64,000 nt of DNA from a candidate division WOR-1 bacterium RIFOXYB2_FULL_36_35 (GCA_001771505.1 MEUA01000023.1:2346-66345); one strand, 5' to 3'. Shown: positions 3,541-59,871, counted from the first letter of the stretch. Numbers and translations are program-made. Notes: generated by a model from the sequence alone, not told the origin.

Positions 3541-5268
3541 ATGCCATTTTTGCCCATAGATAAATCAGAAATAAAAGGCCAGCTTGATATAATAATAGTA
3601 ACAGGAGATGCTTATATCGATCATCCAAGTTTTGGACCTGTCGTTATTGCAAGAAACCTGGAGGCTCATGGTTTTTCCGTAGGAATAATTGCCCAACCTA
3701 ATTGGAAAGAGGATAAAGATTTTCTTAAACTTGGAAAACCCCGTATTTTTTTTGGTATTGCCGCTGGTAATCTCGATTCGATGGTCGCTAATTATACTGC
3801 CGACAACAAAATTCGTAGAACAGACATGTATACACCGGATAATAAAGGGGGGAAACGCCCCGACAGAGCAACGATTGTTTATACAAACAAAATAAAACAA
3901 CTATTTCCCGATTCAATGGTTATTTTGGGCGGCGTTGAAGCAAGTTTAAGACGTTTTGCTCATTATGATTATTGGTCAAACAAAGTTAGAAGATCAATTC
4001 TGTTTGATTCAAAAGCTGATTTAATCGTTTATGGCATGGGAGAAAATGCAATTGTAGAAGTTGCAAACGTAAGAGGTCAAAATCTTGAACTCTTACATTT
4101 GTCAAATACCGCAATCATTTTAAAAGATATAAGCCAATTAAAAGAATATCTCATACTCCCTTCTTTTGAAGAGGTTTCTACCGATAAAAAGAAATATGTC
4201 GAAGCTTTTAAACTTTATTATCTGGAAGGAAGAAAGAGATACCCAAGAATAATAGTTCAGCCATGTCAAGGACGATATCTTGTAGTATTCCCTCCCCAAG
4301 TTATGACAAGCCATGAATTAGAAACTGTTTTTAAACTTCCTTACATGTATGAAGCCCACCCCAGCTACAAAGATCACAAAATACCAGCCTGGGATTTTGT
4401 AAAATTTTCAACAATATCACACAGAGGATGTTTTGGAGGATGTTCTTTTTGCGCGATATCGCAGCATCAGGGAAAGTATATTGTAAGCCGCAGTCAAAAG
4501 TCCATTGAGGATGAAGTAAAAAACATAATCATGAAGAGAAAAGATTTTAGGGGAACTATTTTAGATATTGGAGGGCCAACTGCAAATATGTACATGATGG
4601 AGTGCTCAAAAAAAGAAGGCTGTACCCGTGCAAGTTGCATATATCCTGCAATATGTCCACATCTAAAAAACTCGCACAAGCCGCTTATTAACCTATTAAA
4701 AAGCGTAAGAAATATTCCAGGAGTAAAACATCTCTTTTCAAACTCAGGGATCCGCTATGATCTTGCAATGCAGGATCCTGAATATATAAAAGAACTGGTA
4801 GAGCATCATGTAAGTGGGCAACTTTCTGTTGCGCCGGAACATGTTTGTGAAGAAGTTTTGCTGACAATGGGAAAACCAGGTGTAGAAAAATTCGAATCGT
4901 TTAAAAAAGAATTTGACAAAATATCAAAACAATCGGAGAAAAAACAATACTTAATACCTTATTTTATAGCCTCACATCCCGGGGCAACACTTGAACACGC
5001 ATTGAAATTAGCGCTTTTCTTAAAGAAAAACCATATGAAGATAGAACAGGTTCAAAATTTCACGCCAACACCTATGACAGTTTCAACCTGCATGTACTAC
5101 ACAGGAATTGATCCTTTTACAGGAAAGCAAGTTTATGTGCCAAAAGGAGAAGAGAGAACTTTCCAGAGGGCACTGCTTCAACCATATTTACAAAAAAACA
5201 AAAGAGAGATAATTAAAGCCCTAACCAATCTTGGGAAGCGGGATTTAATTCAAATACTTTTGGAATAG
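3541..5268 (+). CDS. YgiQ-family radical SAM protein (UPF0313)
   Basis: 575 aa; radical SAM cluster motif 'CFGGCSFC'; YgiQ-like N- and C-terminal extensions. Confidence 0.75.
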   Translation: MPFLPIDKSEIKGQLDIIIVTGDAYIDHPSFGPVVIARNLEAHGFSVGIIAQPNWKEDKDFLKLGKPRIFFGIAAGNLDSMVANYTADNKIRRTDMYTPDNKGGKRPDRATIVYTNKIKQLFPDSMVILGGVEASLRRFAHYDYWSNKVRRSILFDSKADLIVYGMGENAIVEVANVRGQNLELLHLSNTAIILKDISQLKEYLILPSFEEVSTDKKKYVEAFKLYYLEGRKRYPRIIVQPCQGRYLVVFPPQVMTSHELETVFKLPYMYEAHPSYKDHKIPAWDFVKFSTISHRGCFGGCSFCAISQHQGKYIVSRSQKSIEDEVKNIIMKRKDFRGTILDIGGPTANMYMMECSKKEGCTRASCIYPAICPHLKNSHKPLINLLKSVRNIPGVKHLFSNSGIRYDLAMQDPEYIKELVEHHVSGQLSVAPEHVCEEVLLTMGKPGVEKFESFKKEFDKISKQSEKKQYLIPYFIASHPGATLEHALKLALFLKKNHMKIEQVQNFTPTPMTVSTCMYYTGIDPFTGKQVYVPKGEERTFQRALLQPYLQKNKREIIKALTNLGKRDLIQILLE

Positions 5269-5746: not shown

Positions 5747-5840
5747 GAACCCCGACTAGGAAATCGGGGTTCATACCTGGGAAAATTTCCAACACTCTTC
5801 TAGAATTCTGTTCGTCTATAAATAATCGGGGTGAAATTTC
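5747..5840 (+). repeat. Palindromic repeat element copy A, long subtype: hairpin GAACCCCGAnTAGGAAATCGGGGTTCAT + spacer with CTAGAATTCTGTTCGTCTAT + tail AATAATCGGGGT
   Basis: Near-identical to 6842..6923 and 40434..40533, and reverse-complement of 59688..59775. Confidence 0.85.
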
Positions 5841-5866
5841 CGAAATAATCATCCGAAAATAAATTA

Positions 5867-6805
5867 ATGACTCAAACTCAAGCTGTAAAGTTTAGATTCA
5901 CAAAAGTACCCACGCCACAAACTGGAATAATAAGGTTTACAAGAAAACCTGCGGATAGATTATTTGTTCATATAAATCCATCTTATGATGAGCAAGTTGA
6001 ACTAACTAGTTTACTTACGACAACAACTTCACCAAAGAATCCTGACAATATTATTGTCCTACCTTCAACCGCAGTGCCGAGACAAGTCTTAGATTTGATG
6101 GGCAAAGCAAGCAAAATAAATGAAAAAAAATTTAATGTTTCTCAGAATTATCTTAAAGATTTTACTGCTTTTTGCAAATTCATAGGGTTTACAAGGTTTG
6201 TGGGAATTGTCCCTGACATAGAAACAAGCCCCATTGCAAAGCAATACCCCGATGTAGCATTTCCGGTAAATGGGTTAACTATGATGGGAAATGGACAATT
6301 GTATGACCCTTCCGCGATTTTTGGAGAGTTTTTTGAGAAGATGAAAGACTCATTAATAATTGTTTCAACCTGTGAGAATGAAGTAGTCTTTGGCGAAAAT
6401 GGAGGTTGGGAAATAAAAAGCACTCCGTGGCAGGAGACAAATGTCCAACAGCAGGAGCTAACTGACGGCGAATCACAAGAAAGTCTGGAACAAAAAACAA
6501 TGAAACAATCTGAAAAAATTGCAACTCTATATTTAACAGAAAGAATTATCCATTTAATGTCACATTTAAGAAATAGATCTATAGGAGACAATAAATCTCA
6601 TAATTTTCTTGAATTCTTTTCGTATGCTTATTTATACAATTTTTTAAACTGTTGTTGGTATATTTTTGAAGAGGATGCTTCCATAAAAACTATTATACAA
6701 AAAAGACAATTAAAAATACTTGAGTTAATAGATTTTAATTACAGTCAAATAACTGAAGATGAGAGAAAAGAGATAAAAATACTCAAAAGAGCAAATATAG
6801 ACTGA
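5867..6805 (+). CDS. hypothetical protein (312 aa), bracketed by direct copies of the repeat element
   Basis: ORF with ATG 27 nt after repeat tail; no recognisable domains. Confidence 0.45.
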   Translation: MTQTQAVKFRFTKVPTPQTGIIRFTRKPADRLFVHINPSYDEQVELTSLLTTTTSPKNPDNIIVLPSTAVPRQVLDLMGKASKINEKKFNVSQNYLKDFTAFCKFIGFTRFVGIVPDIETSPIAKQYPDVAFPVNGLTMMGNGQLYDPSAIFGEFFEKMKDSLIIVSTCENEVVFGENGGWEIKSTPWQETNVQQQELTDGESQESLEQKTMKQSEKIATLYLTERIIHLMSHLRNRSIGDNKSHNFLEFFSYAYLYNFLNCCWYIFEEDASIKTIIQKRQLKILELIDFNYSQITEDERKEIKILKRANID

Positions 6806-10856: not shown

Positions 10857-11863
10857 TAACAACAAAGTTTTTGGAAGATTTAAAAACACTGCCAAAACTT
10901 GAAGCTATTGTTGAAGGAAATGGTTCTATCTTTGACTTAATAATAATAGGCGGAGGGCCTGCTGGATTAACTGCTGCCTTATATGCCGGGCGTGCAAGGC
11001 TAAAGACTCTTCTTATAGAAAGAGCCTTGATCGGAGGGATGGCTTCCACGACTTATAAAATCGAAAATTATCCGGGATTTTCTGAAGGAATAAGTGGAAT
11101 GGATATAAGCCATAAATTTGAAGAAGGTGTTAGAAACTTGGATATTCCGATCTATTACGGAGAAGTTACAAAAATAACAAAAGATAGATACATAGAAATA
11201 GACGGAGAGAAAATACAGGCAAAGGCGATAATAATAGCATCAGGAACAGAGACAAAGAAACTTGGCATTTTAGGCGAGGATAAATTCAGAGGTAGAGGCG
11301 TTTCTTATTGCGCAACTTGTGATGGGTCATTCTATAAAGAAAAAAACATCGCCGTTGTAGGCGGAGGAAATTCCGCTATTGAAGAGGCTATATATCTTAC
11401 AAGGTTTGCCAAAAAGGTAACAATAATTCATAGAAGAGATAAATTAAGAGCAGATAAAATAATAATTGAAAAAGCTTTAAATAACCCAAAAATTTTTGTT
11501 TTATGGAATTCTACTATAGAAGAAATTAACGGGGATAAACGTGTTGAAAGCTTAACACTGTTAAACACCCAAACAAATACCCGAACAACTCTTCCGATGG
11601 AAGGGTTATTTATATATATAGGACGAATTCCCAATACTAGTTTTGTTGATAATATATTGGATATGTCTAAAAATAGATTTATAAAAGTTGATAATAACAT
11701 GAGAACTTCAAGCTCCGGAATTTTTGCTTGCGGTGACGTAATCGAAAAATCTTTATATCAAATAGTCACGGCAGCAGGAGATGGAGCTTTAGCCGCCGAG
11801 TCTGCCAGAAAATTCATTGAAGATGAATATCTAAATGACAGGGAAAAGACTACTACTATATAA
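10853..11863 (+). CDS. trxB: Thioredoxin-disulfide reductase
   Basis: FAD motif 'IIGGGPAGLTAA', redox 'CATCDG', NAD(P) site 'VVGGGNSAIEEA'. Confidence 0.85.
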   Translation: MITTKFLEDLKTLPKLEAIVEGNGSIFDLIIIGGGPAGLTAALYAGRARLKTLLIERALIGGMASTTYKIENYPGFSEGISGMDISHKFEEGVRNLDIPIYYGEVTKITKDRYIEIDGEKIQAKAIIIASGTETKKLGILGEDKFRGRGVSYCATCDGSFYKEKNIAVVGGGNSAIEEAIYLTRFAKKVTIIHRRDKLRADKIIIEKALNNPKIFVLWNSTIEEINGDKRVESLTLLNTQTNTRTTLPMEGLFIYIGRIPNTSFVDNILDMSKNRFIKVDNNMRTSSSGIFACGDVIEKSLYQIVTAAGDGALAAESARKFIEDEYLNDREKTTTI

Positions 11864-15163: not shown

Positions 15164-15351
15164 AAATTTTTGGAAGTTCAAATTCTATTTCTTGTCCAAT
15201 GATGCTAGAGGCATCTAAAATTTCTATGCCAATAAGCTTCTTATTTTTGTCAAAATCAGCCAAAACCCCAGGCATAATAATAATAATCTGAAATTCCAAG
15301 AAAAGTGGGACGATGAATGACCATAGGGAAATCAACGCTCAAAGCGAATTT

Positions 15352-20221: not shown

Positions 20222-20373
20222 ATATATATATCGTCATTTTTGAAGAGGGATTTCAGGAAAATGGGGGGGATAAGTAAGCAGTGAGCAGAAATTTGAGGGA
20301 AAGTCTTTAGTGTGAGTTTGAGTATTTTGTATTTAGCTAAAGCCTAACGACTCAAACTCACAGTCAAGACTCG

Positions 20374-26385: not shown

Positions 26386-26429
26386 CTTCTTATCCTCTGC
26401 TATATTATCGTTAATGTATTATGGAAATT

Positions 26430-27584
26430 TCAGCAAAAATTTGGCATGTGGTAAAGACTGCTTTTTTCAATAATAAACATTTTTCCAGGTAATTGTTTTA
26501 CAAGTTTTTTTATCTCTAGTTGCGATAAGGTTATCAACACTTTTGATATAACTAATTCTGATCTTCTTACAATTTCATCAATATGCATAGGTTCATTAGA
26601 GATAAACTTTAATATATTACTCTCTTCAAAAGAGAGCTGAATCTCTATTTTTTTAATCTCTTTAACAGGTAAAAGGGATTTGTATTGGTTGAGGGATATG
26701 ATATGTTGGAATTCATCAATAATATCATCAACTCCCTCAACAAGCTTTGCTCCTTGTTTGATTAACCAATGAGGCCCTTTTGACAATTCCGATTCTATAT
26801 TTCCCGGGACAGCAAAAACTTCCCTACCCTGATCCAAAGCAAGCTTAGCTGTTATCATAGCTCCGCTTTTATATCCTCCTTCAATAATAATTGTCCCAAG
26901 GGAAAGACCGGAAACAATTCTGTTCCGTTTTGGAAATTTCCAGTTATCTACCGGGTCATTTAGTGGAAACTCGGATAAAATAGCGCCTGATGTTATAATT
27001 TTATCCCTTAAATCTATATTTTCGGGAGGATAAAGAACATTAACCCCACAACCTAAAACGGCAATTGTTTTACCTCCTGCCTCAAGAGCCCCTTCATGAG
27101 CGGCGGTATCAATACCTAACGCCATACCAGATATGATTATTATTCCAAGTTTTGAAAGTTCAAAGGCAATTTTTCTAGCAACATTTATTCCATAATTAGA
27201 AGCTTTTCTGGTCCCAACTATTGCAATTGATTTATCGAAATTTTTTAGAAAATCTCCTTTGTAGTATATAACAGGAGGAGGATCATGAATTTGGAATAAG
27301 ATTTCAGGATAATTTTCATCTTCAAAAGTTAAAACTTTAATATTTTCAGGGATTTTAGTCTCCACCATTTTTATTTCTTCTCTAAGCTCTAAAAAGGCTT
27401 TTATCCCCTTTTTAGGTAACCCTTCAATTTTTGATAAATCATTTGGATTAGCATTCAAAATTGCGTCAATGGAACCGAAGTAATCCCACAGTTTTTTTAT
27501 AGAGGCATCCCCTAAATCAGGAGTCTTGGCTAAAAAAATCCATTTGCTAATATTTTTCATGGTTATATTTAAAATAAGCAGCAA
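26430..27584 (-). CDS. dprA: DNA processing protein DprA
   Basis: Rossmann-like DprA core 'GMALGIDTAAHEGAL', 384 aa. Confidence 0.85.
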   Translation of the reverse strand: MLLILNITMKNISKWIFLAKTPDLGDASIKKLWDYFGSIDAILNANPNDLSKIEGLPKKGIKAFLELREEIKMVETKIPENIKVLTFEDENYPEILFQIHDPPPVIYYKGDFLKNFDKSIAIVGTRKASNYGINVARKIAFELSKLGIIIISGMALGIDTAAHEGALEAGGKTIAVLGCGVNVLYPPENIDLRDKIITSGAILSEFPLNDPVDNWKFPKRNRIVSGLSLGTIIIEGGYKSGAMITAKLALDQGREVFAVPGNIESELSKGPHWLIKQGAKLVEGVDDIIDEFQHIISLNQYKSLLPVKEIKKIEIQLSFEESNILKFISNEPMHIDEIVRRSELVISKVLITLSQLEIKKLVKQLPGKMFIIEKSSLYHMPNFC

Positions 27585-27707
27585 TTTTTGTGCCAGCCTG
27601 ATGTTTCATTTTACAACAATTCCATCAAAAGGCTGTTGCATGACGAAAATTGATTAAAAAACGACAAAAGATCGTCAGTTCCAATATTGGGGAATTTTTA
27701 ACCCCGC

Positions 27708-27806
27708 TTATTCATACCCCGAGTAATGTTTGACAATTTGTTGGTTATTGATTCTGACGTGAACCCCGATTATCCTAATCGGGGTGAATAATCGGGGTTA
27801 AATAAG
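27708..27806 (+). repeat. Palindromic repeat element copy F, TTGACA-spacer subtype
   Basis: Contains 60-nt block TGTTTGACAATTTGTTGGTTATTGATTCTGACGTGAACCCCGATTATCCTAATCGGGGT, identical except one base to 54832..54891. Confidence 0.85.
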
Positions 27807-32653: not shown

Positions 32654-34387
32654 TTACAGATCATCTCGTTGTCTGCGTAAATTCCTTGAAGTTGGATTAA
32701 AACCCTCATCTTCTGGCCCGGAGTTCTTTAATTCTTCTGCGCGATAATCTGAATCTCCATCTGGATTTGGGTTAAGGTCATCTTCAGCCTCTTGTGCCTC
32801 CTCTTCCTCCCCATCGCCTAAAACTATTGTAGTATCATCAAAAGTGCCTAACTCAGTTGGGGTTATATCTGTATCATATATTAACGCTTCTGCATCAATT
32901 TCATCATCCTCGGCTTTTCCCTCTTTTTCCGCATCCGTTTTTACTTCGAGGATTTCATGCTTTTCTCTTTGCCTAAGTATGGTACTCAAGTAATAAAAAA
33001 GCCTTTGATCAAATGTTGAATCAACACCTCGCAACAATGATAAATTTGCAGCTTTTACCATAGAATCGATCAATTCGTTATCTTTCTCAAGACTGTAAAA
33101 AATGTCTGCTGCCGCAAAAAGGCTTTCTATATCACCTTTTATCATATATTGTTCTGCAAGCCTTTCTTTTGCAATAGAATACAAAGCTGTATTTTGCCTG
33201 TTATAAGCCTCAGCCAATAAAACATATGTAGCAAAACTTCTATATCCTAAATCGATTAAAAACTTTAAAGCAAATGTAAAATCCGTAAAAAACTTTACGG
33301 ATTTTTTGTCTGTCCATTCATGAATTGTAGGTTCGTTTAATAAAAATTGCTCATGAGAAAGCGATGGATTTACTTCTAAAGCTTTATCAAAAAAGCGGAT
33401 AGATCTGTTAAATAAAGCTGTAAATTCGTGATTCTCATCTAACTTACATCCTTCATAAATTCTTAAGGCTAAACAAGCAAAGATTGTCCCGCTCAAAAGA
33501 TATGAGTTTGTTAAATCTTTTTTTTCTGAAAAATCATCCTCCGCTAAGATTATTCCTTTTGACTCATTTTCATCAATAGACTGTGCGTGATATTTCAAGA
33601 GCATCTTATTTAATAATGCTAATGCTTCTTCAAGGTTTTCTTCTTTTAATTTTTGTATAATAGCCCATTTTTCAAGTAAATATTCTAAATCAATTTCTTT
33701 TCTTTCATGAAGATCAAAACTAGGTGATAATTCCTTGGCCTTTAAAAATGCTCTCATGGCTCTTCTTAGTAATCTTAATGAATTTGTAGACAACGCTTGT
33801 TTGTAAAAGATTACTCCAATTTTATAATGCTTTTCAGATGCTTTTTCCATGTTGTCACATTTTTCATAAATTAAAGCTGACGAATAAAGGATAAAAATAT
33901 CATCTTCTGGAAGAATATCATTTGCCAAGCTCAGAGATCTAAATGCTTCTTCTTTGTTTCCTAATGAATATAATGCTTCCGCCGCGTCTGCTAACTTATG
34001 GGCTGTATTTACGGCTTTTTCTTTTTCTCCTTTACTCAAATAAGCTCTTCCTAAACCAAAAAGAGCATCCACATGATAAGGTTGTATTTTCAAGACTTTT
34101 AAGAAAGCAACAATTGCATGATCATATTCTTCTGTTATAAAAAAAGCCAGAGCTTCTCGATATAACCTGGAAGAAGGAGGGGTCAATGTTGTAGAAGATT
34201 TAGCTGTTAGGGGTATTGCATGTGGTGAAGGCTGCACAACTTTCTTCCTTGCCCAGCCACCATCAGGGACTAAAGTTACTAATCCGTTATCTTTCCTTAA
34301 AGTTTTTTCTTTAAGAAAAGATCTTAATCCAGGAACTAATAAAGTAACAAAAACCATTGCTCCCTCCCTTAATAGCAGCTTCGGCAA
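32654..34387 (-). CDS. TPR-repeat protein with acidic C-terminal tail
   Basis: Multiple TPR-like helices; C-terminal D/E-rich tail. Confidence 0.5.
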   Translation of the reverse strand: MPKLLLREGAMVFVTLLVPGLRSFLKEKTLRKDNGLVTLVPDGGWARKKVVQPSPHAIPLTAKSSTTLTPPSSRLYREALAFFITEEYDHAIVAFLKVLKIQPYHVDALFGLGRAYLSKGEKEKAVNTAHKLADAAEALYSLGNKEEAFRSLSLANDILPEDDIFILYSSALIYEKCDNMEKASEKHYKIGVIFYKQALSTNSLRLLRRAMRAFLKAKELSPSFDLHERKEIDLEYLLEKWAIIQKLKEENLEEALALLNKMLLKYHAQSIDENESKGIILAEDDFSEKKDLTNSYLLSGTIFACLALRIYEGCKLDENHEFTALFNRSIRFFDKALEVNPSLSHEQFLLNEPTIHEWTDKKSVKFFTDFTFALKFLIDLGYRSFATYVLLAEAYNRQNTALYSIAKERLAEQYMIKGDIESLFAAADIFYSLEKDNELIDSMVKAANLSLLRGVDSTFDQRLFYYLSTILRQREKHEILEVKTDAEKEGKAEDDEIDAEALIYDTDITPTELGTFDDTTIVLGDGEEEEAQEAEDDLNPNPDGDSDYRAEELKNSGPEDEGFNPTSRNLRRQRDDL

Positions 34388-34402
34388 AAAGGGACTAGGA
34401 TT

Positions 34403-35548
34403 TCACTTTCTTTTTAAAAATCTCATAAGTATTTTGGGCTTTTTTAAAACTCCCATAAATACTGATCCAATTGTGGGATATGTCCTTGGGTTTGTTATCA
34501 GACTCCATAAAACAGATGAATGATTCTCAAAATCACCCATATTTTCAATTAATTGCGCATTATCTTTCACATATTCAAATACTTTTTTCAATACCTCTTT
34601 ATCAATGTTTTCCATCGTATATCGCATAAGCAAACACAATCTTATTTCCTTTCCAAATTCTTCTTCCCACTCACGTGCATAGGCTTTTAGATCTTCATTT
34701 TTAATGGCCCTAGCCAATATTTCGGCTGACTTTATGCCATAAAAAATACCGCCTGCAGTTATTGGTTTTACCTGACACGCGGCATCTCCTACTAAGGCGG
34801 CATTCTCTTTAACTAAGTCACATGTTCCTATAGGAACAGGCCCCGCGTTCTTTTCAACTATTTCACCTTTTATGTTACGATCAGCCATAAAACTTTCTAT
34901 CTCATGTATGGGATTATCAGATATAGTGCCTATTCTGACAATGTCGTTTCCTTCCGGAATTAACCACGTAAACAGAGAAAAAGGTTTTATGTAACTTACT
35001 TCAACACGATCTTTATCCGGAATTTCTTTTCTGATCCTGTATTGCAAACCTTTATATAGTTTTATGTTTTCATTTAGTCTTAAAAGTTTACGGACTCTGG
35101 AATATGGACCGTCAGCGCCTACTAAAATGTCTGCATAATACTCTCCGTTAGTAGTTATAACATTGTAACCTGCTCCCACTTTTTCTATTTTTTCTGCCTT
35201 AGTGTTAAATTCTATGTCTAATCCTTCGCTTAGGCTCTTATCAAATTCAGCCCTGTCGATAATATAAGCAACCGAAGGTCTTTTTAAAAGAAAAGCAGAA
35301 CCATTAAAAACGACTTTTGCACCGTCAATTTTGTTCAAAATGGATTTTTTGGGAACAGGGATAATGGTATCTGAAAAAACATCTTTCCCAACAATTCCGG
35401 CACATGAAACAGGACGCCCAACTTCAGAATGTTCCTCAAGTAAAAGAGGGTTAAATCCATAATGTTTTAACATTTGTCCCAAATAGCAACCAACAGGCCC
35501 TGCTCCAACAATTACAATTTTAGGAGGTTTATCATCTTTTTTTATCAT
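34403..35548 (-). CDS. FAD-dependent oxidoreductase, geranylgeranyl reductase family
   Basis: 'IVIVGAGPVGCYLG' dinucleotide fold; GG-reductase-like length and architecture. Confidence 0.6.
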   Translation of the reverse strand: MIKKDDKPPKIVIVGAGPVGCYLGQMLKHYGFNPLLLEEHSEVGRPVSCAGIVGKDVFSDTIIPVPKKSILNKIDGAKVVFNGSAFLLKRPSVAYIIDRAEFDKSLSEGLDIEFNTKAEKIEKVGAGYNVITTNGEYYADILVGADGPYSRVRKLLRLNENIKLYKGLQYRIRKEIPDKDRVEVSYIKPFSLFTWLIPEGNDIVRIGTISDNPIHEIESFMADRNIKGEIVEKNAGPVPIGTCDLVKENAALVGDAACQVKPITAGGIFYGIKSAEILARAIKNEDLKAYAREWEEEFGKEIRLCLLMRYTMENIDKEVLKKVFEYVKDNAQLIENMGDFENHSSVLWSLITNPRTYPTIGSVFMGVLKKPKILMRFLKRK

Positions 35549-40592: not shown

Positions 40593-42107
40593 TCAGCTAA
40601 ATTCCAGATTAAAATTAAATTCCTGTCTGGTCGCTCTATATTTTAATATTATTGCAAAACAGTGAAAATTGAAGCCGAATATATAGTCCAACTCTTCAGG
40701 TAAAATATTTGTTAAATTATAAATGGAATCAACCCCAAACTGAATCTTTTCCCCTCTATAGATAATTCCGGATATTAATTTATCAGATACAGAAAAATTA
40801 TAATTTTCAAAATTATAAGGGCTACCTCCGGAATAAGTTAAATAGTGACTATAGATAAATTTTGAGGAAAAATTGGACGACCATTTAGAATAGAATCCCA
40901 AATCAAAAGAGGTTTTTGCGCGATGTGAACCTTGAGTATATAAAAAGCCTCCAACTGATAAACCGGGTTTAAATTTTGTAGTGGAGTTTTCCCAGAGGGT
41001 TGTTGTTCCTCCTACTTCTCCTCCCATCTTAAAAGCTGAGACACCACTTGATTCTTCAGCAATATTTCCGCCGGAAATATTGCCATCAATATCAATGTTC
41101 CCAATACTGTTTTTTTTCATTTCAATTTTGAGATTTGGCAACATGCTTACAGTTTCATAATTTATTTTTTCATTCATAGAAACTTTAGTTTCAAGCATAT
41201 ATTGTTTTTGTTTGGATTTCTTTAAAATATCAAATTTAAACATATCTTCTTTGTTTTTTACTTCCGGGCCAAAATATGTGTAATGATTAAAGGCTCCTCT
41301 TATATGATCTTTTACTTTGGCGGAAACATCAAAAAAACCTTCATTATTGGAATCAATCTTATAGTTCAGACCAAAGCCCGCGCCAAAGGATTTTTTTTCG
41401 GAATAACTCAAAGAAAAATCACCTTTAAGAGATTGGTTTTTATACCATGGAATACTTTGTGAAATGAAAAAACCATCATCGTTATTTGATCCCACTTGAG
41501 GATAAGGCATCTTATTTATTGTTCCTCTTTCAGGCGCTTGTGCATCGTAAATATATATGGGAACTATCATGGAGGGAATATTAAATAAATAAAATATCCC
41601 CCAATTAGCAATAATCCAGCCGTCATTTGTATCAAGTATTATTTCGCTTGCGGAAACATAGTAATGTTTTTCTCGTTCATCACAGGTTGTAAAACTGGCG
41701 CTTAAAAAATCTATTTTTTGTGGTGTGAGTTTTATATGTTTTCCTGATATATAAACACCGTCATAAAGGATAGAAACATCACTGGCTTCTCCTGTTTTGG
41801 TTTGCATATTGATGTCTAGGCCTTTTCCAAAAATACTTATCCCCTGATAATCTAATTTGAACTTCTCGCCTGTAAACAGACGGCTGTCTTTGAGATAATA
41901 CGTAAAGCTTTCTCCATATGCTTTAATATCTTTATAAGAGACCTCAACTTTTCCAATAGCGGAAAGTTTCGATCCATCTTGGCTATACTCTAATGTGGCG
42001 GCGTTAATAGTAAAATTTGTATCTTCTGCCAAAGAAATAGAATAAAAAAAGAGACTAAAGCAGCAAGAAATAAAGATGGCAAACAAAAGACTTTTTTCCT
42101 TGATCAC
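40593..42107 (-). CDS. LptD-like (OstA N-domain plus beta-barrel) outer-membrane protein
   Basis: Signal peptide, OstA-like N-terminal region, 'SFTTCDE' motif, beta-strand-rich C-terminal part ending with aromatic residues; only 504 aa. Confidence 0.45.
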   Translation of the reverse strand: MIKEKSLLFAIFISCCFSLFFYSISLAEDTNFTINAATLEYSQDGSKLSAIGKVEVSYKDIKAYGESFTYYLKDSRLFTGEKFKLDYQGISIFGKGLDINMQTKTGEASDVSILYDGVYISGKHIKLTPQKIDFLSASFTTCDEREKHYYVSASEIILDTNDGWIIANWGIFYLFNIPSMIVPIYIYDAQAPERGTINKMPYPQVGSNNDDGFFISQSIPWYKNQSLKGDFSLSYSEKKSFGAGFGLNYKIDSNNEGFFDVSAKVKDHIRGAFNHYTYFGPEVKNKEDMFKFDILKKSKQKQYMLETKVSMNEKINYETVSMLPNLKIEMKKNSIGNIDIDGNISGGNIAEESSGVSAFKMGGEVGGTTTLWENSTTKFKPGLSVGGFLYTQGSHRAKTSFDLGFYSKWSSNFSSKFIYSHYLTYSGGSPYNFENYNFSVSDKLISGIIYRGEKIQFGVDSIYNLTNILPEELDYIFGFNFHCFAIILKYRATRQEFNFNLEFS

Positions 42108-45087: not shown

Positions 45088-45166
45088 TGTTGCAAATTAT
45101 AACATTACATATTTCTATTGCCAAGGGAAAAAAGGGGAAAAAATGAAATTATGTCTATTTCTTCGC

Positions 45167-45307
45167 GATAAATAACTATAGGGTCTGTTGCAAAATGGTC
45201 ATTCCCGTGAAAACGGGAATCCATTTTTCAGAAAACAAGATAGATCCCCGTTTTCCTGCCTGCCAGCAGGCACGGCGCGGGGATGACAAATTGCATTTCG
45301 CAACAGT
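45167..45307 (+). other. Inverted-repeat element (arms CTATAGGGTCTGTTGCAAAATG / CATTTCGCAACAGTCCCCTATAG) enclosing a 95-nt GC-rich multi-hairpin core; candidate structured ncRNA or miniature insertion
   Basis: Arms pair over ~20 bp; core has nested stems ATTCCCG/CGGGAAT, ATCCCCG/CGGGGAT, GCCTG/CAGGC, GTCAT/ATGAC; ~55% GC in a ~33% GC background; an empty-site-like copy at 59806..59847. Confidence 0.4.
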
Positions 45308-45315
45308 CCCCTATA

Positions 45316-45334
45316 GGATAATCGGGGTAAAAAC
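45316..45334 (+). repeat. Solo tail fragment of the CCCCGATT repeat family (GGATAATCGGGGTAAAAAC)
   Basis: 8 nt after the IR element; 34 nt before the start of 45368 ORF. Confidence 0.5.
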
Positions 45335-45367
45335 ATAGCCAGGGATTAAAAGGAGAAGAGAGATAAG

Positions 45368-46897
45368 ATGGTTTTAAAAAAAGTAGTCTCTTTTAATTTA
45401 GAAAGAGTTGTGGAAAAAGAATCTGCCGCTATCTTGTTATCAGAGCTTGATAAGTTAGATACTACAGATTCTACATCGCTCAACAATTTTTTTGTAAGGA
45501 TCCAAAGATTTGGATTTCCTTTTACTAGAAGTTATTTTAATAGGATGCTTGAAGGAAGAGATTTAACGCCACTTAGAAGCATGCTTCAGAGGTTAATCCC
45601 AAAACCTAAAATTCCTCAACCGACAAGGATACTTCCTTTTGATCCAAGGGATAGAGATACACAAAGAGATATCAGGCAGAAATTTATGGGTATATTAGGC
45701 GATGCAACATTTTATGATGCTATTTTAAGAAGAATTACCCCTGCTTCTATGGACAGAAAAAAAGAAACTAATTCTTTTGAAATTAACACAAAAGCTATCA
45801 TAGAAGAATTAAATAGGCAAGGTAATGATAAATTGGCTGATGCACTTAAGTATGCAGCAATATTTTTGACTCCTGATAGGGAGGATTTAAAAAGATACGT
45901 TGTTGACCATGGCCTTCTAACTGTTGAGGAACTAGATAGGAAGACCTATATAGGAAAGTGCCTTTATGAAGATTGTTTGAGAATATCAACTACAGAAGAG
46001 GCAATAAATATTATAATGACAGAGCTTTGTAATATTTTTGGAAAGAGAGAGTATGTAGAGACAATGCTATTTGCTCATAACATTAATAGCTCATTCATTA
46101 ATTTTAATTCATCTCCGATGAAAATTGCCGAACAATTTGCAACAATGGCAATCCAATCAGGCAAATTACTGAAAATACTGGAAGGATTAAAAGAAATGTA
46201 CCGGGGAAACACAGTTTTAAATAGTTTGTATACTCAATTTAAAGATTTGACTTCAGTTTCAGATTCTCAACCCCGAAGAATACTCCCTTTTGATACAAGG
46301 GATAGAGCTACTAGAATAGAAATAAGAAAAAAATTTATGGATATATTTAGCGATGAAATTTATTTCAACGCAATTTTTAGAAGATTAGCTCCACATCTCC
46401 TTGGCAGGATAGAAAGTGATGTATCAAAAGAAGTTATAGCTAACGATGTAATAACTAAATTAGAAAATGACCTGATTGTCGCGCTCAGATACACCGCAGT
46501 TTTTTTACTCCCTTACAGGCAAGACTTGAGAAATTATCTCCTAGACCACGGGATTCTTACTGAAAGTGATTTGAATCGGTCAAATGTTATAGGACAAACG
46601 TTTTATGAAAGTTGCCTTAGAATCTTAAGAGCAAATGAGGCAATAAATATTATAATGATAGAATTTCCTAATATCTTTGGAAATGAAAATACGGTTAGGC
46701 AACTAGCAGCAAAGATCGGACTTACTTTAAACTTTAACGTAAACCAAGCTCCTATGGAAGTTGCAGCAAAGTTTGCAGAAGAAGCGTGGAACCAAGATAA
46801 ATTGCCAAATTTACTTATAGAGGCAGTAAAAGAAAATCCTGACAATCAAAAGTTAGCAGATTTATCAAGACAGGTACAAAGTTTTAGATACAGATAA
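45368..46897 (+). CDS. Hypothetical protein: ~85 aa N-domain plus two tandem ~210 aa repeats
   Basis: Internal duplication (RILPFDPRDRDTQRDIRQKFM... vs RILPFDTRDRATRIEIRKKFM...); N-domain paralogous to the next gene. Confidence 0.5.
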   Translation: MVLKKVVSFNLERVVEKESAAILLSELDKLDTTDSTSLNNFFVRIQRFGFPFTRSYFNRMLEGRDLTPLRSMLQRLIPKPKIPQPTRILPFDPRDRDTQRDIRQKFMGILGDATFYDAILRRITPASMDRKKETNSFEINTKAIIEELNRQGNDKLADALKYAAIFLTPDREDLKRYVVDHGLLTVEELDRKTYIGKCLYEDCLRISTTEEAINIIMTELCNIFGKREYVETMLFAHNINSSFINFNSSPMKIAEQFATMAIQSGKLLKILEGLKEMYRGNTVLNSLYTQFKDLTSVSDSQPRRILPFDTRDRATRIEIRKKFMDIFSDEIYFNAIFRRLAPHLLGRIESDVSKEVIANDVITKLENDLIVALRYTAVFLLPYRQDLRNYLLDHGILTESDLNRSNVIGQTFYESCLRILRANEAINIIMIEFPNIFGNENTVRQLAAKIGLTLNFNVNQAPMEVAAKFAEEAWNQDKLPNLLIEAVKENPDNQKLADLSRQVQSFRYR

Positions 46898-46936
46898 TAG
46901 AACTATAAAATACCATTATTTGAGGGGATACATAGA

Positions 46937-47875
46937 ATGTTTTCAAGAAAAGTAGTCTCTTTTAATTTAGATGTTATTTCCGCAAAAAAGCCGATAACCA
47001 ATCTACTAAAGGCTATTAATACTTTAGATGTAAACGATCAAGCAAAATTTGACAGTTTATATGAGGAAATGAAAGAGTATGGATTTCCATTTACTAGATC
47101 GGCTCTTAAGAGAGTCATTTCAACCGGAGATATAAAAAGTGATGATCATCCTGTACAACAACTATTAAGAAGCCTTGCCCCTGCTAAGCCTAAAGTTGAT
47201 AAGCCTAAAAAAGGAAGCAGTGGAGCTATCGAACGTCCTCAACCTTCAGATCAAAAGTTATTACCTAGAGAGATAACAATGAATACAATATTAAAGATTG
47301 TCCTAAAATTTTGTGATAATTCCTGTACCTCATTAATTAATAAGGCAAAAGCTTCTTATATAAATGAACCTTCAAAAGATTATTTCACAAGTCCACCTCT
47401 TTTAACCGCTTCAAGAATACTAAAATTAGCCCTAAAAGAGAAAAAGCTTTTATCTTTTCTGGAAAATATCCTAAAAGACTATTCTAATAATAGAGAATTG
47501 CAAGACATTATAACCTTTGTAAAACAAAATAAAGAGATTATTTATTCCTGGGGAGAAATGGAACCAAAAGGGGATCCTTATTATTGTTTTAACGCAGATG
47601 AAATGAAAATAATACAAAATGTTTCCTTGTCTTCTTCGTTATCATCGATTTTTGGAAATGTTATGGATATAGAGGCAATTTCATTAATAATAGGAATAGA
47701 TATTGATATTTCAGAAAATGGAAGAACAAGAGTAGATAACCTTATTAGAGAAGCAATAAGAGTTGGCAAAATAAAAAAGGTTATAAGATATATAAGAGAG
47801 GTATATCCCTTTAACCCAGAACTTAAAAGCCTTGAAGCTCTGGTAGAAAATTCAAGATTATCTAGTGATATTTAA
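46937..47875 (+). CDS. Hypothetical protein, paralog of 45368..46897 (shared N-terminal domain 'KVVSFNL...GFPFTRS')
   Basis: N-terminal ~90 aa alignable to the upstream gene; K/P-rich linker; helical C-terminal region. Confidence 0.5.
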   Translation: MFSRKVVSFNLDVISAKKPITNLLKAINTLDVNDQAKFDSLYEEMKEYGFPFTRSALKRVISTGDIKSDDHPVQQLLRSLAPAKPKVDKPKKGSSGAIERPQPSDQKLLPREITMNTILKIVLKFCDNSCTSLINKAKASYINEPSKDYFTSPPLLTASRILKLALKEKKLLSFLENILKDYSNNRELQDIITFVKQNKEIIYSWGEMEPKGDPYYCFNADEMKIIQNVSLSSSLSSIFGNVMDIEAISLIIGIDIDISENGRTRVDNLIREAIRVGKIKKVIRYIREVYPFNPELKSLEALVENSRLSSDI

Positions 47876-49190: not shown

Positions 49191-50224
49191 CTATTAACTC
49201 CTTTTAAAATATCAAAATTCTTTAAAGCTTTTTCACGAAACTCTTTTTTTATCCTTTTGATATTATTCTTGATTTTTTCTTTTTTTTGCAACGTTTCTAT
49301 AACAATTTTCGTTAAATCATCAAGATTGTTAGGTTTTATGGCAGGAAGATTGGCTTCTTCCATAAAAGAAGAGACTTTCGGATCATAGGTTATCCCTATC
49401 GCAGGAACAAGATGATTTGTCGCAAAAATTAGAGAGTGTAATCGTGTGCCTATAACAAGATCCACCTGAGAAATTATTTTCATTATTCCTTCAAAATTAT
49501 CATGATCTCCCTTTAGTTCGGACTTTTGTTTCATTTTGTGCATTATATTTACACATGAATGGATATCATCTCTCTGATGAAACGGGATGAAAATTATTTT
49601 AGCTTTTAATTTTTTTACTAAATTATCACATATATCAGCAAATTTTTGTTCAAAATTTGAGGGCATATCTTTAAATCTTCTTGGACATATGGCTATGGTT
49701 AGAGAAGTTTTTTGTTTTTTTGTTTTATTCTTTTGTTTTGTAATTTTTGTATTCTTTTTTATGTTGTTTGCTTCTTCTTTGTCAAAAATAAAAGTCGGAT
49801 CAGCCGTCATTATAATTTTAGGTCTTTTCAGTTTTAAGGATTTTACAAAGTCATAAGAGTTTTTGTCTCTCAACGTGATAATATCTGCCAAGTTTAAAGT
49901 TGATTTTATTAATTTAATATTTACTTTTTTCTTAATAGGCCCTATGCTTTGCGCGAAAACAATTACTTTTTTCCCAAAAAACACTTTTGCTGCCCATATT
50001 AAACTTGTATAATAAAGAAGGCTGCGAGTGCTGGTTGCGTCCTGAAGAAGCCCCCCACCGCCGCTTATTAATACATCTGAATTTGAAATAGCTTTTAAAT
50101 TAAGACGATTATGAGCATCAAGAACAGAAATTTGATGATTCTTAAAGCCCTGTTTTATTGCGGCCAAAATCGCTTCATCCCCTGCATTTCCATATCCATA
50201 ATAACCAGATATTGCTAGTTTCAT
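49187..50224 (-). CDS. csaB: Polysaccharide pyruvyl transferase (CsaB-like)
   Basis: 'ISGYYGYGNAGDEAIL' N-terminus typical of the PS_pyruv_trans family; 345 aa. Confidence 0.7.
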   Translation of the reverse strand: MKLAISGYYGYGNAGDEAILAAIKQGFKNHQISVLDAHNRLNLKAISNSDVLISGGGGLLQDATSTRSLLYYTSLIWAAKVFFGKKVIVFAQSIGPIKKKVNIKLIKSTLNLADIITLRDKNSYDFVKSLKLKRPKIIMTADPTFIFDKEEANNIKKNTKITKQKNKTKKQKTSLTIAICPRRFKDMPSNFEQKFADICDNLVKKLKAKIIFIPFHQRDDIHSCVNIMHKMKQKSELKGDHDNFEGIMKIISQVDLVIGTRLHSLIFATNHLVPAIGITYDPKVSSFMEEANLPAIKPNNLDDLTKIVIETLQKKEKIKNNIKRIKKEFREKALKNFDILKGVNR

Positions 50225-52198: not shown

Positions 52199-52335
52199 AA
52201 GATCAACACCCTGCCTCCTTTCAAACTTTTTTTCTGATTTTTTACATCTGAAGGGTCTGTGTAAATTTTTTAAAGTTTTATAATAATATCATAAAAAAAG
52301 TGAAATTTTTATATATTATGTTGCGATAGTGCATA

Positions 52336-52378
52336 AACCCCGATTATTCGCCCCGAGTAGGAAGGATAATCGGGGTAA
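52336..52378 (+). repeat. Palindromic repeat element copy J (double-hairpin, short)
   Basis: AAACCCCGATTATTCGCCCCGAGTAGGAAGGATAATCGGGGTAAAC. Confidence 0.8.
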
Positions 52379-52426
52379 ACTCTGATGACAAATCGGAGTC
52401 AAATAAAAATAATAAAGGAGTTTTTT

Positions 52427-53827
52427 ATGTCAACAAATACTATAGATTATAAACGAGTAACACCAATGCAAGCGTATAAATGGGCAGCTTCTGGAAAACT
52501 TAAGACAGGGCTCATTGGGCCAAATGACAAAATTAGGACTTATATACCTCCGTATGATCCTGCAATGCTTTTGTTTGCAACTCTTTGTAATAAGCTTGGT
52601 GAAGCAATAATAAAAAGAAGCCCTTTTTTAAGTTGCGGATATGATGAAATGCCAACGGATTTTTATAGTAGGAAACCTTTAAAAAAGGCAGATGATATCG
52701 TTTCTAAAAACATAGAGTTACAAACATCAGAAGGCCAGCCGTTTAATCTTACAAAATTAACCAAAGGATCAAAGCCTAAATCGGATGATTGGAAAAATGC
52801 GAGTATAATATGGGGACCAGGGCTAGGAATTAGATGGGCTACCGGACTTATGGGTACAAGCATAGGAAAAACCCCTGTACTGCAACGGCTGCTAGATAAA
52901 AGCGCTACTGTGTACACAATCGATCAGCCATGGATCGATTCAAATCAAAATTATCCCTTAAGCAACATTAATGAATCGGAAGTTTTGGCAAGGAGATTTT
53001 ATCCCTCTTTTGCAGATTGGGCATTGGCAAACAATTTAGATGAAAATCCCGTTATATTTATGGATCACAGCATGGGAGTTACAAACCTGGAAATACATCT
53101 TTCGATTTATTCTGATATAATAAAAAAAGATCCCAGATTAAAGAAATTGTTTGCGACAAGGCTCTCTTTTGGAACTCCATTTCCAATGGTTGACGGACTT
53201 ATGATGCTTCTCTCTCTTGGCGAGCCATTGTTAGAAAAGATAGGATTAGATTATTTTGACTATCCCGGATTAGGCCCTTTAGTAAAAAAACTTGGCATAC
53301 AAAAACCACTTACAAATAACCCTTTAAATCTTGGCGCTTTTTCTTGTGAAACTCTGCCCTCAGAGTTAATAGATGAATTTTTTGAGCATGCTGTAGCCCC
53401 CTGGTCCAGAAACCAGCTAAGATTTTTCAGGTTAGGTGCGTATCGTGGCCATTTTAGTTATTTAAATAAGCCTCAACCTTTTTGGCCTGGGATGCTGAAT
53501 GTAAATTTTATGGGGACGCGCGATCCTTTAGGTTCATTTTTTGGAGCTTTGGCATACCAAATGCCTCAGCCGCAAAGCATAAGAGATAAAACTTCTTTTA
53601 TAAACGTTGATAGAAGTTTGCCTCCAAGTACGAACTATATATTAGATAACTTAGACGCTATAAACTATATTGTTATTGATCCTGCTACCCATCTTGAGCT
53701 TTTGTGCGCAGGCCCTTCTATTTTTGAAAATTTTATCTGGCCTACAACAGAAGCAATAATAGATTCTATAGTTAATGCTAAGTTGCTAGCAAATAATAAT
53801 GTAAAAAGGAATCAGTTTTATGAATAG
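52427..53827 (+). CDS. Hypothetical protein (possible alpha/beta-hydrolase-like 'DHSMG' elbow)
   Basis: Start moved to ATG 52427 after AAGGAG; no firm domain assignment. Confidence 0.4.
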   Translation: MSTNTIDYKRVTPMQAYKWAASGKLKTGLIGPNDKIRTYIPPYDPAMLLFATLCNKLGEAIIKRSPFLSCGYDEMPTDFYSRKPLKKADDIVSKNIELQTSEGQPFNLTKLTKGSKPKSDDWKNASIIWGPGLGIRWATGLMGTSIGKTPVLQRLLDKSATVYTIDQPWIDSNQNYPLSNINESEVLARRFYPSFADWALANNLDENPVIFMDHSMGVTNLEIHLSIYSDIIKKDPRLKKLFATRLSFGTPFPMVDGLMMLLSLGEPLLEKIGLDYFDYPGLGPLVKKLGIQKPLTNNPLNLGAFSCETLPSELIDEFFEHAVAPWSRNQLRFFRLGAYRGHFSYLNKPQPFWPGMLNVNFMGTRDPLGSFFGALAYQMPQPQSIRDKTSFINVDRSLPPSTNYILDNLDAINYIVIDPATHLELLCAGPSIFENFIWPTTEAIIDSIVNAKLLANNNVKRNQFYE

Positions 53828-54716
53828 GATATCAGTCATTGAAGACTCAGGTTTTTTTGGCAAGATATTCAGATCAAAAGATGTTGAGAATAATTCTTCT
53901 TTAGCCTTTGATTCAGAGCTTGATAAAATCAAAAAATCAGGAAAGACCCAGGCAGAAAAAGTTGAAGATTACTGTAAACTGGCGCTTAAAGAATCTGCTG
54001 CAAAAAGAAGACAAAACGCTATAAAAGCCTTTAGCTTCGCGCTGAAAGCCGTCCCGGGTCCTCTTTCTGACTCTGAAAAAATATTTGCTGGAGTTTTAAA
54101 AGATCAGAAAATAAAAAATCATGAGGAACTGATCAGTAATTGTCTGCATTTAATAGCAGGAGAAATGGCAAAGACCAATCTTTCTGTTCATGATATGACA
54201 TTTATTTCTGGAGGCTCACTTGATAAATTTGAATTCCAGTTTATCCTTGTACAGGAACTTTCAAACGCGTTCCGTTTTAATGAGAGTCTTAAAATTGCCA
54301 TAAAAATGGATGATGGCGCGTTACCGCAGAAAATCAAAGCTTTTACCTATTTAGCTTCAAAGGCAGAGGGCCAATCTGCGCATATATTATTTAACAAAGC
54401 TTTGAAGCTGGCAAGGTCATGCAATGTCAATTATCTGAAAGCTGATTTTGAAGAAGAGATAATCATACAAATGGCTGAATCAGATTTGTTTAATGACGCG
54501 TTAAGAGCAGCATTAAAAATTGAAATTATCAGCAACAAGGTCTCTTCTTTATGCGGGATAGCCGTTGTTATGAATGAAAAGGGTTATGCTGAAAGCGGGG
54601 AAAAAATACTTAACATGGCAAAAAAAATCGTAGAAATTGTAAGCCGATCAGATGCTAACCTTAACCGGTTAATTGAAAGTGCGGAAAATCAAATAAAAAA
54701 ACAATCTTCTTCTTAA
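53820..54716 (+). CDS. Hypothetical alpha-helical repeat protein
   Basis: ORF overlapping the upstream gene by 8 nt; helical repeat character. Confidence 0.4.
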   Translation: MNRISVIEDSGFFGKIFRSKDVENNSSLAFDSELDKIKKSGKTQAEKVEDYCKLALKESAAKRRQNAIKAFSFALKAVPGPLSDSEKIFAGVLKDQKIKNHEELISNCLHLIAGEMAKTNLSVHDMTFISGGSLDKFEFQFILVQELSNAFRFNESLKIAIKMDDGALPQKIKAFTYLASKAEGQSAHILFNKALKLARSCNVNYLKADFEEEIIIQMAESDLFNDALRAALKIEIISNKVSSLCGIAVVMNEKGYAESGEKILNMAKKIVEIVSRSDANLNRLIESAENQIKKQSSS

Positions 54717-54740
54717 CCCCGATTATCCTAATCGGGATTA
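54714..54740 (+). repeat. Palindromic repeat, single-hairpin copy K1 (TAACCCCGATTATCCTAATCGGGATTAAAATT)
   Basis: Perfect 9-bp arms CCCCGATTA/TAATCGGG(A). Confidence 0.75.
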
Positions 54741-54813
54741 AAATTAAATTGCTATATCTTTTATATTGGTTGAATTCTTTGAAAAAAGTATACGATAATA
54801 TATTGACCCCGAT

Positions 54814-54893
54814 TATTCATACATCGAGTAAATGTTTGACGATTTGTTGGTTATTGATTCTGACGTGAACCCCGATTATCCTAATCGGGGTTG
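54814..54893 (+). repeat. Palindromic repeat element copy K2, TTGAC-spacer subtype
   Basis: 60/60 nt identical except one base to copy F (27732..27791). Confidence 0.85.
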
Positions 54894-54901
54894 ATATAGG
54901 A

Positions 54902-59645: not shown

Positions 59646-59687
59646 GATAAAATTAATTATAACATATTTTAAAACATTAAAATTTAA

Positions 59688-59775
59688 CCCCGATTATTCA
59701 TAGACGAACAGAATTTTAGCAGAGTGTTGGAAATTTTCCCAGGTATGAACCCCGATTTTCTAATCGGGGTTCATA
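59688..59775 (-). repeat. Palindromic repeat element copy M, long subtype, reverse orientation
   Basis: Reverse complement matches copies A/B/H including CTAGAATTCTGTTCGTCTAT. Confidence 0.85.
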
Positions 59776-59805
59776 CTTAGATAAAGAAAAATCGGCTTTA
59801 TGGGA

Positions 59806-59847
59806 CTGTTGCAAAATGTTAAATTTCTGTGTGACATTTCGCAACAG
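59806..59847. repeat. Short hairpin copy of the CTGTTGCAAAATG/CATTTCGCAACAG inverted-repeat element (16-nt loop, no core insert)
   Basis: 12/13-bp stem; same arms as 45167..45307; 25 nt downstream of the porin-like gene stop. Confidence 0.6.
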
Positions 59848-59871
59848 GGCATTTATAGGTCTTCTGATGGT

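Follow-up and report, generated by a model that had tools for sequence, protein, structure and literature searches.

A two-gene locus of a WOR-1 bacterium that joins a new N-terminal domain family to EAD1 modules, with a possible role as adaptor-only hubs

What might be the role of two adjacent genes whose products share an N-terminal domain and are otherwise built of helical modules, one of them duplicated in tandem, with no recognizable catalytic part? This question is raised by a locus in a stretch of 64,000 nucleotides (nt) of DNA, hereinafter the window, from the candidate division WOR-1 (Saganbacteria) bacterium RIFOXYB2_FULL_36_35 (GCA_001771505.1, MEUA01000023.1:2346-66345). An earlier account of the window made without database searches (the sequence-only reading) had recognized the gene pair, its shared N-terminal domain (N-domain), and an internal duplication of a helical module of ~210 amino acids (aa) of unknown function, and had guessed at a diversifying system such as surface, defence, or conflict proteins. 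We find that the module is indeed helical but composite, its C-terminal half belonging to EAD1, a family catalogued in Pfam, and that the N-domain heads a small lineage-specific family, several members of which bear C-terminal FGS domains with hypervariable tips. As EAD1 comes from conflict systems, the guess made earlier gains in substance, and we propose, with a probability of about one half, that the two gene products act as cytoplasmic adaptor-only hubs of a lineage-specific conflict network.

The two genes and the identity of the duplicated module

Gene 1 (45368..46897, + strand; 509 aa; OGC07753.1, locus tag A2230_01055) and gene 2 (46937..47875, + strand; 312 aa; OGC07754.1, locus tag A2230_01060), delineated by open reading frame (ORF) calls and domain searches, constitute a two-gene operon on the same strand, and both ORFs are present as first described. 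A ribosome-binding site, AAGGAG, can be read 12 nt 5' of the ATG of gene 1 (45350..45355, +), and a second one, GAGGGG (46922..46927, +), lies inside the 39-nt gap that separates the TAA of gene 1 from the ATG of gene 2. Since gene 2 has its own ribosome-binding site and ATG along with a complete, strictly N-terminal N-domain, the two are separate genes, and the concern voiced in the sequence-only reading that they might be a single gene split by a frameshift is ruled out. The product of gene 1 is organized as an N-domain and linker followed by two tandem units, each comprised of a helical half and an EAD1, whereas that of gene 2 combines the N-domain and linker with a degenerate EAD1-like region and a C-terminal EAD1. 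The GC content of the locus is that of its surroundings, and no relatives of either protein with a solved structure were found.

The tandem duplication in gene 1 is real, its copies being 44% identical across 191 aligned aa (E 2e-49), and its boundaries are aa 87-303 (copy 1; 45626..46276, +) and aa 304-509 (copy 2; 46277..46894, +) rather than the earlier 86-297 and 298-509. The two copies share 57% nucleotide identity, with a synonymous divergence (dS) of ~1.5, which is near saturation, and a nonsynonymous divergence (dN) of ~0.53. Hence, the duplication is ancient, and purifying selection has acted on both copies. This selection, together with the identity of the gene 1 protein on 13 contigs under three metagenome-assembled genome accessions, argues that the genes are functional.

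The ~210-aa module is divisible into a ~115-aa helical half and a ~90-aa region that we assign to EAD1 on the strength of profile comparisons. The whole protein of gene 1 scores 37.9 bits against the Pfam EAD1 model (PF19955), above its gathering threshold of 24.2 bits. When scored alone, the EAD1 of copy 2 (46625..46882, +; aa ~420-505) reaches 27.8 bits over aa 436-503, and the two others in the window fall below the threshold, namely the EAD1 of copy 1 (45980..46243, +; aa ~205-292; 14.3 bits, model positions 4-88) and the C-terminal EAD1 of gene 2 (47627..47842, +; aa ~231-302; 17.6 bits, and ~20 bits with a canonical EAD1 hidden Markov model [HMM]). A profile of these three copies, however, aligns in hhalign with 15 canonical EAD1 repeats, drawn from the unrelated multi-EAD1 proteins P0005, P0007, P0008, and P0010 recovered in the exhaustive search described below, with 98% probability (E 1.6e-13, 75 columns). 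The window copies are 24-44% identical among themselves and ~17% identical to canonical EAD1. AlphaFold2 models of the gene 1 module and of the N-domain are all-alpha, with residues 194-296 helical at a per-residue confidence (pLDDT) of ~76-82 and the first half of the module likewise helical, so that the EAD1 copies are predicted to be small, all-alpha, and non-enzymatic.

Gene 2 had been credited with one diverged copy of the module, and this is borne out in part: its C-terminal EAD1 is homologous to the gene 1 module (hhalign E 1.5e-4), and its mid-region (aa ~159-198; 47411..47530, +) matches the C-terminal half of EAD1 (24 bits with the canonical EAD1 HMM). The remaining first half of the module is simply collinear with that of gene 1 in a MAFFT alignment. 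We also considered whether the first half of the module might itself be a degenerate EAD1, which is conceivable; hhalign aligns the two collinearly but without significance (P ~0.005, probability 7%), and we do not adopt this assignment.

No enzymatic domain is detectable in either protein with Pfam, NCBIfam, or PADLOC, in line with the lack of a catalytic signature remarked upon earlier, and no housekeeping family was found to be related to the repeat module. Likewise, neither protein displays a signal peptide or a transmembrane (TM) segment, the maximum 19-aa hydropathy being 0.97 for gene 1 and 1.60 for gene 2, as the sequence-only reading had surmised with respect to signal peptides. In the reading that we favour, both products are cytoplasmic, non-enzymatic proteins made solely of protein-protein interaction modules.

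The N-terminal domain and its FGS-bearing paralogues

The N-domains of gene 1 (45368..45625, +; aa 1-~76 plus a Pro-rich linker at aa 77-86, delimited by family alignments and the AlphaFold2 model) and gene 2 (46937..47194, +; aa 1-~86, delimited by BLASTP between the two genes and family alignments) are 34% identical over 92 aa (BLASTP, E 1e-14), which substantiates the shared domain with its KVVSFNL and GFPFTRS motifs and Pro-rich tail. The domain spans ~85 aa and is characterized by a conserved M-x-x-K-K-V-V-S-F-N-L peptide followed by a predicted four-helix unit with a G-F-P-F-T motif; in the AlphaFold2 model, built on a 7-sequence alignment, the helices occupy residues 20-29, 35-48, 54-62, and 67-76 with a pLDDT of ~80, and the N-terminal peptide is of low confidence. 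There is no Pfam match in 8 members even at E 10. A sequence-profile search of the PDB returned weak matches alone, all with E >= 0.08, of which six of the 12 are EF-hand proteins and one is Nif11; being non-significant, these were not accepted as evidence. A Foldseek search of the model against the PDB retrieved no significant neighbour, the best being a DNA-binding BEN domain at E 4.3, and we found no match in the literature. Thus, the N-domain defines a previously undescribed domain family without a Pfam model and is the genuinely new part of the locus.

Word-indexed searches for homologues, run with gene 1 and with an N-domain alignment, returned almost no matches, so that HMMER had to be used for an exhaustive search of 1.84 billion (1.84e9) representative proteins. 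With a combined profile and a cutoff of E <= 1e-3, it recovered only 11 proteins, with N-domain-only matches among them that have variable C-termini. The WOR-1 protein P0004/N12 (E 7e-10) stands above all non-WOR-1 EAD1 proteins (best 1.4e-8), its top-scoring stretch being the N-domain. A metagenome scan and a six-frame HMM search bring the number of distinct family sequences to 16 (14 without variants). Across the 1.84 billion proteins and the metagenome scan, the N-domain is found solely in WOR-1 groundwater populations. No relatives were detected in viral contigs or in phage and plasmid collections, on which account an origin as a phage receptor-binding protein or mobile element was set aside. 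Scans of a GTDB representative set that lacks the window's species retrieved no relatives of gene 1, and the sole other WOR-1 purC locus in them (L017) is not syntenic with the window.

Every family member opens with the N-domain at residue 1, continues with a low-complexity linker, and ends in a C-terminal part that varies among members. At least eight paralogues occur in one genome, namely A2230_00515, _01055, _01060, and _04985, plus N04, N10, N11, and N12, which lie on the same long contigs as N03 (= A2230_04985). Beyond genes 1 and 2, the N-domain heads at least six proteins of the same genome, mostly fused to FGE-sulfatase/FGS domains of the C-type-lectin-like kind. In the family at large, at least five members combine the N-domain with this domain (PF03781, E 1e-21 to 1e-52), N12 combines it with two EAD1s (29.3 bits with the Pfam model), and several have C-terminal regions with no assigned domain. 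In locus L102, N12 lies next to the N-domain-FGS gene N10 in divergent orientation.

The FGS-bearing members vary in a distinctive fashion. In their first 420 nt, the syntenic alleles N06 and N08 share 100% identity, which then declines to 48-75%, with indels, in the 3' direction; the middle section of N06 is 98-100% identical to the paralogue N10, and divergence among alleles and paralogues is concentrated in the last ~300 nt of the N-domain-FGS genes. This pattern indicates mosaic exchange along with hyper-divergence of the FGS tip. A diversity-generating retroelement (DGR) is not supported as its source, since no template repeat (TR) or reverse transcriptase (RT) was found in ~180 kb of WOR-1 loci and the variation consists of indels and mosaic exchange, not adenine-specific substitutions. 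The mosaics can be seen in L097 (1433-2368) against L098 (1668-2612) and in L102 (6001-6915), with identical 5' halves and swapped middles, and the hyper-divergent 3' tips with their indels sit between conserved RGGSW and GVRFAKDL motifs.

Comparison with EAD-coupled systems and the adaptor hypothesis

Kaur et al. described EADs as small non-enzymatic domains, one copy of which resides on an NTPase-centred core component (VMAP, iSTAND, GAP1, or Ubl) and further copies of which are found on effectors, often encoded by adjacent genes (Kaur et al. 2020, eLife, PMC7159879). Coupling by homotypic binding was proposed there from computational prediction on the model of Death-fold domains, to which EADs were explicitly likened (PMC7159879), and the picture has been extended by later work (PMC8195603; Doré et al. 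2024, PNAS, PMC10907252). FGS, in turn, is a signature sensor or 'neutralising' module of these conflict systems (PMC7159879; PMC10907252). Neither the accessions of the two genes nor WOR-1 are listed in the supplements of the two EAD papers.

The locus resembles these systems in that EAD1 copies occur in two adjacent genes 39 nt apart, which fits the 'EAD-coupling principle', and in that the WOR-1 copies are lineage-specific, being nearer to each other than to outside copies. It differs from them in that no EAD1-bearing core component is found in the window, the paralogue neighbourhoods, or, by exhaustive search, the lineage; in that there is no enzymatic effector fusion, the WOR-1 partners of EAD1 being the N-domain and the helical half; in that some of the copies are internal rather than terminal; and in that the host is a candidate-phylum bacterium. 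The core component and the enzymatic partner are two defining features of EAD-coupled NTPase systems that were not found here. The closest non-WOR-1 relatives of the module are tandem EAD1 arrays of the kind of P0005 (six EAD1s) and P0010 (three EAD1s with helical repeats), which are likewise multi-EAD1 and non-enzymatic; in the WOR-1 proteins, by contrast, EAD1s alternate with a ~115-aa helical half absent from the canonical arrays and are preceded by the N-domain. In the corresponding non-WOR-1 loci (L106 1395-6021; L108 5125-11347), the EAD1 array is a third component of a MoxR(AAA_5)-vWA system or lies beside genes for CHAT and AAA_5.

The paralogues also recall FGS sensors and DGR targets, inasmuch as their C-terminal FGS domains have hypervariable tips, and the cyanobacterial FGS fusions that carry an extra domain N-terminal of FGS (PMC7159879). 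They differ in having no TR or RT at the loci examined and no vWA, STAND, or kinase fusion, and genes 1 and 2 themselves have no FGS domain. The layout of polymorphic toxins is not reproduced either: toxin domains, signal peptides, and TM segments are all missing, as are nearby secretion genes.

We propose that the N-domain might serve as a shared docking or oligomerization handle that gathers the members of the family, because it is EAD-like in being small, helical, non-enzymatic, terminal, and lineage-specific, with many paralogues and variable partners. The FGS paralogues would then be diversified binders or sensors, and the products of genes 1 and 2 multivalent hubs, in which EAD1-EAD1 binding could build higher-order assemblies. 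Such hubs would be analogous to the adaptor-only proteins ASC, FADD, and MyD88 of animals, in which small helical interaction domains bridge sensors and effectors, the analogy being one of mechanism alone. The presence of the N-domain on hypervariable FGS proteins of the same genome suggests a small sensor-plus-adaptor network without a visible NTPase engine. A more specific and more doubtful version of the proposal, which we offer tentatively, is that the N-domain is a new homotypic adaptor of the EAD type that wires hypervariable cytoplasmic FGS binders to EAD1-array hubs, forming an NTPase-independent, adaptor-only immune 'signalosome' in a candidate-phylum bacterium with a small genome.

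EAD-type adaptors have been proposed as bacterial equivalents of the Death-fold adaptors found in animal immunity, and most of what is known of them comes from large NTPase-centred systems in multicellular bacteria. The interest of the locus lies in that it would be a stripped-down case, with two small soluble proteins made of adaptor modules alone and no membrane parts. If the coupling model holds, it offers a compact and tractable system for the study of EAD1 self-association and of NTPase-free sensor-adaptor networks; if the adaptor-only signalosome holds as well, the coupling logic of EADs and Death-like domains would extend beyond multicellular bacteria that have NTPase-centred cores. The findings also extend the biology of EAD1 and FGS to the Saganbacteria and define a new domain family.

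Several observations weigh against the adaptor hypothesis, the main weakness being the lack of an NTPase core and an enzymatic effector in combination with an EAD1 function that is itself predicted. No STAND, MoxR-vWA, GAP1 GTPase, or Ubl component, and no peptidase (caspase, trypsin) or nuclease effector, is present in the window or beside any paralogue; among WOR-1 proteins, the exhaustive search revealed no further one that carries a related EAD1; and the WOR-1 genes have no neighbours comparable to the AAA_5 (MoxR-like) and vWA genes that the P0005 gene follows or to the CHAT and AAA_5 genes that come after that of P0010. NCBIfam, PADLOC, and PHROGs give nothing informative for genes 1 and 2, and the silence of the latter two counts here. 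The fold of the N-domain has no assignment, so that its docking role is read from the architectural pattern, and in the literature searched we found no experimental test of EAD1 function. EAD-coupled NTPase systems are reported to be enriched in multicellular bacteria, a statistical association with multicellular or social hosts (PMC7159879), and multicellularity is not known from the Saganbacteria.

A further set of such points concerns the possible dispensability of the locus. A second, independent assembly from this population, with 4 mismatches over 4768 nt, has TAA instead of GAA at codon 188 of gene 1 (E188*); this is a true nonsense allele or else an error of assembly or sequencing. In the variant P0002, gene 2 has lost 56 aa in frame (aa ~121-176; window ~47297-47464). 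These alleles, together with an insertion in the 5' leader of gene 1 (see below) that resembles a miniature inverted-repeat transposable element (MITE), raise the possibility that the locus can be dispensed with. Codon 188 corresponds to window position 45929 and position 2750 of L001, where the gene is split into calls of 187 and 293 aa; the P0002 deletion lies between two short ILK-encoding repeats. Another allele of gene 2, P0018, differs, by reading of the sequence, in a cluster of substitutions plus a 1-aa insertion around aa ~96-155.

Among the alternatives, the N-domain could be a targeting module, for non-classical export or for anchoring to the envelope or another cell structure, with a variable family of cargoes, on the pattern of polymorphic surface or toxin systems, and with the EAD1 arrays as spacers. 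Its strictly N-terminal position, the high conservation of its first 11 residues, the Pro-rich linker, and the variable C-terminus would all suit such a role, as would the surface exposure of many FGS binders in DGR systems (PMC7159879) and the cell-envelope genes near the pair (wecG, csaB, and DUF5693). As noted earlier, the pair converges on wecG; the overlap amounts to 14 nt. These envelope neighbours are, however, probably coincidental, as the paralogues lie beside unrelated housekeeping genes. Besides the lack of a signal peptide or TM segment, no toxin domain, immunity domain, or secretion genes are found in the window or the paralogue neighbourhoods, and the published EAD1 is tied to cytoplasmic NTPase-centred systems (PMC7159879). 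We accordingly consider targeting unlikely.

The proteins could also be generic scaffolds for a housekeeping complex outside any conflict, the likeness to EAD1 reflecting a shared small helical fold only. This would accord with the scores of the two window EAD1 copies that fall short of the Pfam threshold alone, the missing NTPase core, and the absence of PADLOC matches. It would also accord with the genomic setting, which counts at the same time against the adaptor hypothesis: all paralogues are single among core genes rather than in defence islands, their neighbours being mutS; lepA-hrcA-grpE-dnaK; purD and rplKAJL-rpoB; tig-clpP-lon; ychF-rpsF-ssb; and mnmE-folD (gene names as read from Pfam matches and ORF starts). 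Against such a scaffold, the joining of two signature conflict modules, EAD1 and FGS, to the same N-domain, the hypervariable and mosaic FGS tips, the very narrow phyletic distribution, the paralogue expansion, and the disruptive alleles are all atypical of housekeeping genes. We give this reading little credence and retain the adaptor-hub hypothesis over it.

Upstream sequences, remaining alternatives, and other genes

Upstream of gene 1 is a promoter-like motif, TGAAAT-N16-CGA (45144..45168, +), the TGAAAT and CGA elements of which are invariant at fixed spacing when the region is aligned without gaps to those 5' of seven other N-domain genes. The motif occurs at seven sites in the window (5832-5856, 15289-15313, 20231-20255(-), 26408-26432(-), 34381-34405(-), 45144-45168, and 50084-50108) against 0.79 expected (~9-fold), a count reached in 0 of 100 shuffles. 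Several of the sites lie directly 5' of unrelated ORFs, and the motif is mostly found 10-30 nt before start codons. Because it precedes unrelated ORFs too, we infer that the motif represents a genome-wide promoter class. A family-specific regulon marked by TGAAAT-N14-TTCGAA was rejected, as the relaxed motif is genome-wide. By comparison with ECF (extracytoplasmic function) consensus sequences, the class possibly belongs to an alternative sigma factor of the ECF-like type and might make near-leaderless mRNAs. One of the unrelated ORFs (5867-6805, +; 312 aa), which has no relative in the PDB and no similarity to the N-domain family, has TGAAAT-N14-TCCGAA 9 nt upstream, a family-like distance.

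This motif bears on a third alternative, that the N-domain is a small DNA-binding domain, like a helix-turn-helix (HTH) or ribbon-helix-helix (RHH) domain, of one-component regulators in which FGS or EAD1 would do the sensing or oligomerizing. Bacterial one-component regulators usually pair a constant N-terminal domain of ~80 aa with a C-terminus that varies, and the N-domains are mildly basic by residue count. The strand-like SFNL peptide and the helix cap G-x-x-x-T-R-S recall Arc/Mnt-type RHH motifs, which we take as a lead only, and the non-significant BEN match from Foldseek points in the same direction. Against this, the 8 members have no HTH or RHH match in Pfam even at E 10, no DNA-binding protein appears in the PDB profile search, the AlphaFold2 model has four helices without RHH topology, and the motif shared upstream is that of the genome-wide promoter class rather than a family operator. 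DNA binding is, in our view, quite improbable.

Between the motif and the ribosome-binding site of gene 1 lies an inverted-repeat element (45176..45316), recognized from its inverted repeats, its recurrence elsewhere, and reading of the sequence, with CTATAG direct repeats at 45176-45181 and 45311-45316 and a terminator-like hairpin at 45201-45220. The element had been noted earlier as a structured feature preceding the locus; it is real but not particular to the locus, its modules being found again in L012 and in at least five further intergenic stretches of the window. The resulting dispersed mosaic family of repeats covers window positions 27585-27774, 45176-45330, 52199-52384, 54717-54901, and 59646-59871 and L012 positions 4810-5005 and 11126-11328. 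Since its modules recur in many intergenic regions and Rfam yields no match, the element is a MITE-like or REP-like insertion in the 5' leader, not a dedicated regulator, and its interpretation as a riboswitch or locus-specific regulator was discarded. The modules of the family include a perfect hairpin AACCCCGATTATCCTAATCGGGGTT, a second unit GGATCCCCGC(TTTC/GAAA)GCGGGGATGACAAATTGCA, and TTGCAACAGTCCC, all with a REP/MITE-like look.

That the locus is a decaying remnant without current function, as the codon 188 nonsense allele of one assembly, the deletion allele and variant-rich region of gene 2, and the insertion of a MITE-like element with a terminator-like hairpin between the promoter motif and gene 1 might suggest, is very unlikely, given two long intact ORFs in an AT-rich genome that both keep their ribosome-binding sites, a full-length protein identical on 13 contigs, and a dN well below dS between the module copies.

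The window is otherwise one of housekeeping genes, such as recG, alaS, fhs, dnaB, purC, wecG, csaB, and others. It also includes, near the locus, three sizeable ORFs of 504 aa (40593-42107, -), 480 aa (52385-53827, +), and 298 aa (53820-54716, +) with no Pfam match at E <= 1e-3. Elsewhere in the family, N03 (L012 10001-11125) and N11 (L012 14592-15464) are 3.5 kb apart, and the genes between them, on the opposite strand, have Pfam matches to Lactamase_B/ODP, rubredoxin, and DNA-polymerase-X/PHP. The stand-alone N-domain gene P0006 (A2230_00515) is convergent with a gene for a conserved 446-aa protein that has no significant Pfam match (L002 10475-11815, -); the same gene is present in L003-L007.

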